From Curvularia clavata (lineage: Eukaryota), in assembly GCA_023920165.1 (NCBI GenBank), contig CP089280.1:1178001-1242000 (forward strand): DNA of 64,000 bases. Reading direction: 5' to 3'. The notes below the pieces were generated by a model. The model was given only the letters and a program-made list of their open reading frames with translations, ran no database searches and had not been told where the DNA came from. Position 1 is the stretch's first letter. Every line of letters begins with the position of its first letter. Shown piece after piece: positions 5,153 to 8,290 of the stretch. The position numbers were made by a program, and so were the translations under genes.

Positions 5153-6488
5153 TGTGACGGCACTGGAAATGCAGCAGCAGCACTGATGTAATTTTTTGAG
5201 GGAAAAAAATTGTGTTGCAGCAGAGGAGAGAATAGAAGAGAAGGGCGGTCAGTCATGATTTAGCGCGGCGAGCGTTCTCTTATGTTTTTGGCATTGTGAT
5301 GATATCTTCAGCGAAGTTTTGAGCAGACGTTGTTTAGCTGAGAATGTACCGAGGGTCAGCTTTTGGCCGAGCTGGCAGGGGTTTTCCTGGTGCCAAGACG
5401 CCCGGCAAGCGCATGGCTCGCATCCCCTGTTCAAAGGCAAGTTGCTCAGCTTCTCCAGTGTTTTCGGTATTCGACTTATTATTTGGTTTGCAGTTCTCTC
5501 TGGCAGAGGATGTTGTCTTTGAACAAGGGGTGTTGTTGGACAAGCGGTGAACAGGGACGGGAGACTCGGGGAAGCTGCGGCATTGCTCCACACTGATTGG
5601 GCCGTCCCCGTCTCCGATCTCCAAATGCAGATCCCGAATCTAACCAAGAGCGAGGAGGTGTTGGTAAGCGCGTATGTCTTGAGGTACTACAAGTATGTAG
5701 TTGTCTAGGTATGAAAGACTACTTGACAGCATGTAGTCATGTAAAGGATTGGGAGCCGCCCTTCCTAGGACTCGACTGCTTGATGGCTGTTTAGTGCAGA
5801 TCGATAAGAGCGAACAACGCCTGAGCGCATGTATGGGTATATGTAGATATGAGCATAGAGAGAGAGCACTGAGCTTGTAGTGTAATATCTGGTATGGTCA
5901 GAGTTGCTTGGGCTGTGAGCACTGTATTGTCCACTGTTGTAGAGGTGAGCCATATCGACTACCAGGAGGTTGTCTGCGCTTACCTAAACATCAGATATAT
6001 GAATATTGCACAGTGTCAGACCAATAAGCATTCATACCGCAGACAATCTGCATAAATCATGCGTTTGGGACCGAGTCGTGGACTTGAGTACTCGGCGGCG
6101 TGCCATGTCTCGCCGATGGCTTGGGTGGGTGAGACGTGCGCAATCGTGATACGACGCCATCATCGCTCGTGATCTCGTGACGACTCCCACTCTCCCTCCC
6201 ACCTGCCTGTTCCTGGCTACTAGCACACAAAGACACGACACCAACACGTATATACCAAACATATACCAAGCTTCAAGCTACGAACGCCTCCACTCGCCCA
6301 GCCCAGTACGAACAGTCGCCGAACGAGCGCACCCCTCTTCCACTATCGATAGCCCCGCCGCCCGCCTCACAGCTCCTCCACCACCCCGACCTGCGCAACA
6401 CGCCACAAGTCTCCCTACAAGCCCAGCTGCGATACCAAGGCTCCCAAATCCACATCTGCATAAGTTTTCATAAATAGCCTGCCTCAAA

Positions 6489-7524
6489 ATGAGTTCGCCA
6501 AAGAGACGTATCGAGACGGATGTATGTTGAACCTATGACACCAGTAACCACCCGTGGTTGAAGAACAAGAGCTAATCAACGATGTTGCCGATATAAACAG
6601 GTCATGAAGTATGTCGCATATATGTCTGCTGAAGCTGGGCCATGCTAACAAGTGAATAGGATGTATGTTGCGCAGTCTGCCACTTGACTCAACGTTTCGC
6701 GCCGCCTCCGTGGCGACAGCCAGAGCCCCTGCTAACAGCGCGCAGGCTCATGAGTGACTACGAAGTGACTCTGGTCAACGACAACAGTAAGCGGCAGTCA
6801 ATCTACCTCAAAAAGGCTCAGCTGACAGTTTCCAGTGTTAGTCTATCCTACCGCTCCATCTTGCGCCTGCCCAAACACTGACATGCCGTAGGCAAGAGTT
6901 CTATGTTAGGTTCAAGGGCCCGTCAGAAAGTATGTCGATCTTTTCGCACCTTGGCTTTGGTACTTTACTAAGGTCCTATAGCTCCTTTCGAAGGCGGTCT
7001 CTGGAAGATCCACGTCGAGCTCCCAGACCAATATCCCTACAAGAGCCCTAGCATCGGCTTCGTCAACAGGATATTCCACCCCAACATCGACGAGCTGTAC
7101 GTCAGCCCTTCTTTTGTCCCCCTTTGACCAATATCCTAACAAAAACAGTTCTGGCTCCGTCTGTCTCGACGTCATTAACCAAACCTGGTCGCCCATGTAC
7201 GACATGATCAACATCTTCGAAGTATTCCTTCCTCAGCTCCTTCGGTACCCCAACCCGACCGATCCCCTGAACGGGGAAGCTGCTGCTCTTCTCATGAGGG
7301 AGCCCAAGAGCTATGACGCCAAGGTCAAAGGTGTGTAAAGTGATAACCACCCGTTAGTACGTCACAGTGCTGAACAACAAACAGAGTACGTCCAAAAGTA
7401 TGCCAGCAAGGATACTGCCGAAGATTCCGACAAGGATGACGGTGATGACGACGAGATGAGCTCTGTCGGCAGCTATGAATCAGGAGATGAAGATGGCGCA
7501 GCAGGCAACATGGACGATATCTAA
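6489..7524 (+). CDS. UBC8: Ubiquitin-conjugating enzyme E2 Ubc8/UBE2H. Exons 6489-6521, 6601-6608, 6660-6662, 6746-6786, 6836, 6892-6929, 6982-7096, 7149-7330, 7385-7524 (561 nt, 186 aa)
   Basis: Spliced product [39 protein letters not shown]...[23 protein letters not shown]...DPLNGEAA with an acidic tail. All introns are GT-AG and nearly all have a clear CTRAC-type branch point. Confidence 0.93.
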
Positions 7525-8290
7525 TCAAGCATACTAAGCTTGGCCGGCCTTCCTCTGTATCTCTTATGTCCTTTCTTTTTGATTTTCTCATGGCGGGACG
7601 TTCGAGGCGCTAGTGTGGCGCAGATATAGGCTGCGTCTCTGCATATTTCCCTCTCTTGGACTGTATGGATTGGTTAAAGACTTGGCTCTATTGATTGGCG
7701 TTCTCTATCATACTCTTTACTGTCGTATGTAATGGCAAGTATCATTTCTGCCCATGCTCTGTGCGAGAGGGCCACACTGTAATCCTCATCCCCGTATGTC
7801 AACATGCGATATCAGTATCAGGTGCGGTGTTGTATTTCATAAAATATATGCACCACATGTCCTAACACCTTCCTACATAACTCACATGTTCATAACTGTT
7901 TAAGCCTTGTCATGCCCGTTTGCTGTCAGTACCTACCATGCTAGTCAAGTTCGATCCTCCATGAGACAACAGGACAAACATGTTTACGACACGATGCTGA
8001 TAGTCTATAGCTGATAACCGAAGTCTCATGCTCACCCTTCATGGTTTCGGATGGTGATTGCTGGTCTTAGTGAAAGTTGACGTCACGGGACTCCTATTTC
8101 ACTCCTGTGAGACTGCGCTAATTGAAGCAAACAAATTGTCATCTCTAGCCTGTAACCGTGTTTATATAACCAGTCGCCACCACAACTCCCTGACAATAGC
8201 CAAAACAAACAGTCCAAGGCCAGCACCATAACTCTTTCATCCGTTCCTAGTTCAACCTACCGTCCCAAAGCTCAGTTGTTCAAGTTCGGC

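Follow-up and report, generated by a model that had tools for sequence, protein, structure and literature searches.

One-base exons are already known in print. In Arabidopsis, the APC11 gene contains a single-nucleotide exon (Guo and Liu 2015, PMC4674806), and the 1-nt microexons of plant APC11 and VPS55 have been described as conserved among land plants and overlooked in annotations (Yu et al. 2022, PMC8831610). Among fungi, the CYP621A P450 genes of Fusarium carry a one-nucleotide exon that was confirmed by public RNA reads (Nelson and Syed 2026, PMC12940212). That report calls it the first in a fungal gene, but the long-read annotation of Coprinopsis cinerea had already listed thirteen 1-nt exons (PMC12230235). 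Guo and Liu also mention recursive splicing at zero-length exons, that is, at AG/GT ratchet points (PMC4674806). The case described here, in a UBC8 gene of a filamentous ascomycete, adds to these examples; our literature search, which mostly covered papers outside subscription-only journals, found no printed one-base exon in UBC8 or UBE2H.

Structure and Identity of the UBC8 Locus

The gene lies on the + strand of a 64,000-nucleotide stretch of Curvularia clavata DNA (the window, whose numbering is used throughout). Built by coordinates, it has nine exons between positions 6489 and 7524 and encodes a product of 186 amino acids (table 1). Its eight introns, 49–83 nt long, are all of the GT..AG type. 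One conserved Met codon is split by both intron 4 (phase 1) and intron 5 (phase 2), and each of the two has a CTGAC motif 10 nt before its 3' end; the coordinates and motifs of these two introns (6787–6835 and 6837–6891) are exactly those claimed in the preliminary description of this DNA. Slightly upstream, the GAT of exon 3 provides the last base of Lys14 and the first two bases of Met15. Five introns are thus packed into codons 11–29, with the 8-nt and 3-nt exons lying just upstream of the proposed 1-nt exon.

Table 1. Exons and introns of the UBC8 gene in the window (X1, X2, X3, and X20 are public sequencing runs)
Feature	Positions	Strand	Evidence
Exon 1, 33 nt, from start codon, encodes 11 residues	6489..6521	+	Model; X1/X2/X3 contigs from 6300 or upstream to ~6521–6523
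Intron 1, 79 nt, GTATGT...GCTAAT...AACAG	6522..6600	+	Model; within X1/X2 joint 6523 to 6746
Exon 2, 8-nt micro-exon, GTCATGAA	6601..6608	+	Letters between joint sides in X1/X2; X3 loose ends
Intron 2, 51 nt, GTATGT...GCTAAC...AATAG	6609..6659	+	Model and RNA contigs
Exon 3, 3-nt micro-exon GAT	6660..6662	+	...GAT between joint sides in X1/X2
Intron 3, 83 nt, GTATGT...GCTAAC...GCGCAG	6663..6745	+	Model and RNA contigs
Exon 4, 41 nt, 13 residues and A of the split Met codon, ends ...GACAACA	6746..6786	+	Model; contig pieces 6746–6786 in X1/X2/X3
Intron 4, 49 nt, GTAAGC...GCTGAC...TTCCAG	6787..6835	+	Skipped in X1/X2/X3; contiguous in DNA-like X20
Exon 5 (1 nt), single-nucleotide T, middle base of Met29 codon (A/T/G)	6836..6836	+	RNA contigs, unique decomposition, relatives
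Intron 5, 55 nt, GTTAGT...ACTGAC...CCGTAG	6837..6891	+	Model and RNA contigs
Exon 6, 38 nt, G of the Met codon and 12 residues, starts GCAAGAG...	6892..6929	+	Model; contig pieces 6892–6929
Intron 6, 52 nt	6930..6981	+	Joint 6929 to 6982, GT..AG, X1/X2/X3
Exon 7, 115 nt, UBC core including HPN motif	6982..7096	+	Model and RNA contigs
Intron 7, 52 nt	7097..7148	+	Joint 7096 to 7149, X1/X2/X3
Exon 8, 182 nt, UBC core with Cys of SGSVCLDV	7149..7330	+	Model; Pfam UQ_con, E-value 2.5e-14, exon alone
Intron 8, 54 nt	7331..7384	+	Joint 7328 to 7383 (cut +2) in X1/X2/X3
Exon 9, coding part, 140 nt with stop, acidic C-terminal tail	7385..7524	+	Model; contigs run to 7700 and beyond as 3' UTR

When T 6836 is included, the gene reads ...VTLVNDN-M-QEFYVRF... 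in an open frame of 186 amino acids; when 6786 is joined straight to 6892, the frame shifts and an early stop follows inside exon 8. The frame argument made in the preliminary description therefore stands, with one nuance to its "only with this T": on paper a second in-frame solution exists, in which the donor at 6787 and an acceptor ending at 6896 define a 110-nt intron, the protein reads VNDN-KFYVRF, and M, Q, and E are lost.

As judged by sequence comparison, the gene encodes an E2 of the UBC8/UBE2H type, as had been proposed. A public protein that is identical to our model at 185 of 186 residues (P0011, 114 member sequences) contains one Pfam domain, UQ_con (E-value of 8.6e-40; 136 bits, with a cut-off of 27), and for exon 8 of the window by itself the score against this domain is 53.5 bits (E-value in table 1). 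The best match of P0011 among solved structures is yeast Ubc8 (8pmq_E; E-value of 1e-71), aligned over residues 1–178 and without a gap through the Met in question, followed by human UBE2H (8pjn_2 and 2z5d_A; E-value of 9e-68), while Rad6, from the next subfamily, is far behind (E-value of 2e-28). The residue encoded by the split codon is Met in yeast Ubc8 and Leu in human UBE2H. An HPN motif, an active-site Cys, and an acidic C-terminal extension are typical of UBC8/UBE2H-type E2s, and the translation has the HPN motif, a predicted active-site Cys, and a D/E-rich C-terminal tail; the UQ_con domain, the HPN...C active-site region, and the acidic tail are what the window protein has in common with yeast Ubc8 and human UBE2H, the E2 enzymes of the GID/CTLH ubiquitin ligase.

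Transcripts, Relatives, and Public Gene Models

Public sequencing runs were searched with positions 6300–7700, and contigs from four (X1, X2, X3, and X20) of the 24 runs listed were aligned to the window. In none of these 24 did the share of sampled words present go far above one half, as expected for a spliced transcript. X2 is on record as a metatranscriptome; X1 and X3, which were only guessed to be RNA, were taken as such because their contigs are spliced at all eight introns. In X1, X2, and X3, which come from three studies and contribute one contig each, the joint from 6786 to 6892 carries exactly one letter, a T, with contig depths of 336.5, 8.29, and 53.4, respectively. From the 5' UTR to the 3' UTR, over every exon between, these contigs agree with the window at 99% or better, and they are spliced at the other six introns as well, including 6929/6982, 7096/7149, and 7330/7385. 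A direct joint from 6786 to 6892 or 6897 is absent from the X1, X2, and X3 contigs, and at a reporting threshold of 5% the T-included joint is still the only one listed. The finding that had been named beforehand as speaking against the exon, a cDNA without the T or with other in-frame splice sites, is thus absent from the contigs of all three runs. The T-included isoform is the sole one seen in them, in data consisting of assembled contigs, one per run at the joint, which drop rare variants and in which isoform ratios, splicing intermediates, and strand are invisible.

The same contigs confirm the 8-nt exon (6601–6608) and the 3-nt exon (6660–6662), neither of which was mentioned in the preliminary description. 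In X1 and X2, the joint from 6523 to 6746 holds CATGAAGAT between its two sides, which corresponds to the 8-nt exon followed by GAT, the first GT of the 8-nt exon being absorbed into the left side of the joint; in X3, the same micro-exon letters appear as loose ends. X1 also contains a low-depth unspliced contig over introns 1–3 (6494–6775; depth of 12.7, vs. 336–392 for the spliced form), which could be pre-mRNA, carried-over DNA, or a few percent of intron retention. X20 was dropped as RNA evidence because it behaves like DNA: it is contiguous over 6590–6845, with adaptor-like loose ends and no joints, and independently confirms the genomic sequence around the T. That none of the RNA-run contigs lies over 6817–6863 was given no evidential weight.

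Given the observed cDNA, the genomic interval can be decomposed in 45 ways with two introns and in none with a single intron, and just one of these decompositions, the one that leaves T 6836, has GT/GC..AG ends on both introns. A central AGTGT with at least 40 nt on either side was produced by 244 of 20,000 shuffles of the interval.

Conservation of the AG-T-GT arrangement in other fungi, which the preliminary description had proposed to look for, was observed in relatives. A metagenome scan with the exon-8 peptide matched at least 586 stretches, of which 387 were confirmed and the best 80 kept; at each locus, the codons for TL(V/I)ND(N) and (Q/S)EF were located and the DNA between them was read. 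Among these best 80 of the 387 confirmed loci, 53, forming 39 clusters at 80% identity or more, show A/GT..AG/T/GT..AG/G with a single central AGTGT, between introns of 46–87 and 50–95 nt that are otherwise diverged in sequence. One further locus (L030) is ambiguous, with two candidate AGTGT sites, one (L041) has a single intron, A/GTCAGT...GAGCAG/TG (at 1150–1230), 19 have an uninterrupted ATG, and in 6 the region is absent. Two loci with the protein sequence QEFYVAF (L044 and L052) are included in these counts. Of the 19 loci with the uninterrupted ATG, seven show no break at any of the six tested junctions and correspond to transcript-like contigs of 1.0–1.6 kb. The remaining 12 are interrupted elsewhere in the gene, so that most of them look like genomic DNA of lineages in which neither intron is present. 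They comprise L005, L027, L034, L043, L058, L060, L072, L074, L077, and L079, plus L021, in which only the intron-7 junction is missing and which may represent an incompletely spliced transcript, and L023, which may be a pattern miss. Read in this way, the loci indicate that both introns flanking the T are absent together in several lineages, that L041 represents a natural in-between state, with one intron instead of two or none, and that two-, one-, and no-intron states of this Met codon all occur in nature.

The upstream micro-exons were read in the same loci. Again among the best 80 of 387, the 8-nt plus 3-nt layout was found in 40, a single 11-nt exon without intron 2 in 14, and a contiguous N-terminal region in 16, the region not being on the locus in the remaining 10. 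The 3-nt exon of the 40 loci is GAT in 32, GCT in 5, ATT in 2, and GTT in 1. The eight loci with an exon other than GAT (L055, L057, L061, L063, L066, L067, L076, and L078) keep the AG/NNN/GT layout, and by our own reading GCT, GTT, and ATT would replace the residue that follows Lys or Arg by Leu, Val, or Ile. In L076, intron 1 (the gap after ...IETD) begins with GCAAGT and is a GC-AG intron, at a position where the window has GTATGT.

Public protein models were frequently found to be wrong at the split codon. A search with exon 8 gave 4858 matches, 120 of which were listed; 59 of these contain TL(V/I)ND(N/S/G), and the remaining 61 are fragments or models without this motif. The correct continuation, M-(Q/S/E)EF, is present in 20 of the 59 listed proteins, P0011 among them, several being encoded on contigs of about 1 kb. 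Three others (P0054, P0059, and P0081) continue with KFYV, and 36 have another wrong continuation, resulting from intron read-through or compensating guesses. As anticipated in the preliminary description, gene predictors thus tend to miss the 1-nt exon: of the 59 listed proteins extending to VNDN, 39 go wrong there. The wrong models bear names from the Dothideomycetes, Leotiomycetes, Sordariomycetes, and Lecanoromycetes, well-known plant-associated genera among them. Judged from these garbled models, the picture fits a wide spread of the split codon across several Pezizomycotina classes. A concrete misannotation is the Curvularia clavata protein P0027, the best match to the window among named proteins (184 of 193 residues), which translates the window's intron 4 letter for letter (at least 20 residues). 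For the metagenomic loci, best matches to named proteins proved unsuitable as a guide to taxonomy, since the protein is highly conserved and overlapping matches inflated the counts, in some cases beyond 100%. Fungal Ubc8 sequences in databases are thus often corrupted in the region of the first beta-strand.

Intron Removal and Alternative Explanations

How a one-base exon may be spliced can be considered from the signals of its flanking introns. The two adjacent introns are each about 50 nt long, the usual length of fungal introns, and each is equipped with a 5' splice site, a branch motif, and a 3' splice site of its own. Because both carry all their own signals, exon sequence would not be required for their recognition, and each would be recognized across itself (intron definition). 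Two spliceosomes cannot sit 1 nt apart, and the introns would therefore be removed one after the other. The same argument for intron definition and sequential removal was made by Guo and Liu (2015, PMC4674806). For UBC8, intron definition and ordered, sequential removal, as raised in the preliminary description, are plausible.

The splice-site context hints that the upstream intron may go first, as its removal would turn the context of the downstream donor from AGT/GT into CAT/GT. We compared the splice sites of 40 representatives, including the window, by a simple count of matches to the consensus CAG/GTAAGT, an uncalibrated measure. A pyrimidine at position +3 is present in the downstream donor of 18 of the 40 representatives and in the upstream donor of 4. 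By the same count, the mean match of the downstream donor to CAG/GTAAGT rises from 4.4 to 6.2 of 9 after removal of the upstream intron, when the junction reads (C/T)AT/GT instead of AGT/GT. On the other hand, the downstream intron goes first at the 9-nt exon of potato invertase (cited in PMC4674806), which counts against an upstream-first order. RNA structure aiding splicing across the T was considered and rejected: window positions 6777–6901 fold no better than shuffles (z of −0.59), and over the 40 representatives the mean z is +0.39, with 1 of 40 below −2. No extra conserved element was found around the T.

A stronger version of the upstream-first order would make it obligatory across Pezizomycotina, with an intrinsically poor downstream donor that becomes competent only after removal of the upstream intron has placed ...CA before T/GT, in a recursive-like maturation of the splice site. 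We consider this rather unlikely. If it were true, UBC8, with its 8-nt, 3-nt, and 1-nt exons, would be a compact natural test bed for footprint-less exons and might also serve as a kinetic checkpoint for GID E2 levels.

Three other explanations have to be weighed against a genuine one-nucleotide exon. The 110-nt intron 6787–6896, in which the T would not be exonic, has in its favor that it is in frame and that its equivalent is used by P0054, P0059, and P0081, but all three RNA data sets keep 6892–6896 and insert the T, and this intron would delete M, Q, and E, which are conserved in yeast Ubc8 and present in all 20 of the correct listed proteins, so that we give it practically no credence. 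It is just as hard to believe that the window locus is a frameshifted pseudogene and that the contigs derive from an intron-less retrocopy, from another organism, or from an assembly error. The RNA nature of X1 and X3 was indeed only guessed and in some relatives the ATG is uninterrupted, but X2 was recorded as an RNA library, the same T was obtained independently in three studies, and the similarity of at least 99% extends beyond the exons into both UTRs. Moreover, X1 includes a low-depth unspliced contig of the locus, as expected for pre-mRNA, and intact splice signals are kept around a single T in 39 diverged clusters, unlike what would be seen with a pseudogene.

A different question is whether inclusion of the T is regulated. 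The preliminary description had suggested an on/off frameshift switch for the GID E2. In such a scheme, the T would be skipped under some conditions, giving a frameshifted and probably decay-prone mRNA, and splicing would tune the level of the GID/CTLH E2. Skipping would indeed shift the frame and introduce the early stop inside exon 8, the often weak downstream donor (+3 pyrimidine in 18 of 40 representatives) could make inclusion sensitive, and in plants the 1-nt exon of VPS55 is present in some isoforms and missing from others (PMC8831610). However, the three RNA data sets show the T-included junction only, without a direct 6786–6892 joint at the 5% threshold, in contigs that drop rare isoforms and from which low-level skipping could escape. 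In addition, several lineages have an uninterrupted ATG while keeping other introns, which implies that the split is dispensable, and neither a conserved RNA structure nor an extra conserved element was detected around the T. With no sign of regulation in these data, such a switch appears very improbable. By contrast, the one-nucleotide exon itself, the central claim of the preliminary description, is borne out by the gene layout, the reading frame, the RNA contigs, and the unique canonical decomposition, and T 6836 is very likely a genuine exon, one nucleotide long, in the fungal orthologue of yeast UBC8 and human UBE2H.

Comparison with Documented One-Base Exons

Two known arrangements resemble the one described here in part. 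In a stwintron, an internal intron interrupts the donor, acceptor, or branch site of an external one, which becomes functional only after the internal intron has been removed. We rejected this reading for UBC8 because both introns have an intact GT, branch motif, and AG, because they are adjacent and not nested, and because one base is kept in the mRNA. Recursive splice sites are a feature of very long introns and contribute no base to the mRNA, the first splice re-creating a 5' splice site. The likeness to recursive splicing would lie in a stepwise removal that re-creates a 5' splice site, here ...CAT/GTTAGT once the upstream intron is gone; the differences are that the UBC8 introns are minimal in size and that one base is kept.

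The closest parallels are the one-base exons already in print. Plant APC11 and VPS55 share with UBC8 one base placed between two complete GT..AG introns and needed for the frame, conservation over a wide clade together with absence from reference annotations, and the existence of relatives with neither intron, in which the base lies inside a larger exon. UBC8 differs from them by belonging to another kingdom and being another gene, by its much shorter flanking introns (49 and 55 nt), and by the additional 3-nt and 8-nt exons a few codons upstream, known here from sequence and RNA contigs. The two/one/no-intron relatives of UBC8 offer a ready-made series for the gain, loss, and splicing of adjacent introns. 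The locus is of value mainly to gene annotation and, as a compact natural model, to the study of micro-exon splicing.

Within fungi, CYP621A is similar in several respects: it is found in a filamentous ascomycete, with an AG/N/GT arrangement between short introns and with the base in the middle of a conserved codon, and its public gene models contain errors there as well (PMC12940212). The exon of CYP621A is a G (AGGGT), and this P450 subfamily is rarely expressed and confined to one genus, whereas the exon of UBC8 is a T in a core E2, with contig depths of 8–337 and 39 clusters of relatives. Coprinopsis cinerea is a basidiomycete, and the passage on its 1-nt exons names no genes; it shows that 1-, 2-, and 3-nt exons recur in fungal genes and that leaving them out breaks gene models (PMC12230235). 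To this very short list of documented one-base exons, UBC8 contributes a deeply conserved case from a transcript with good coverage, which also carries RNA-confirmed 3-nt and 8-nt exons within the same 30 codons.
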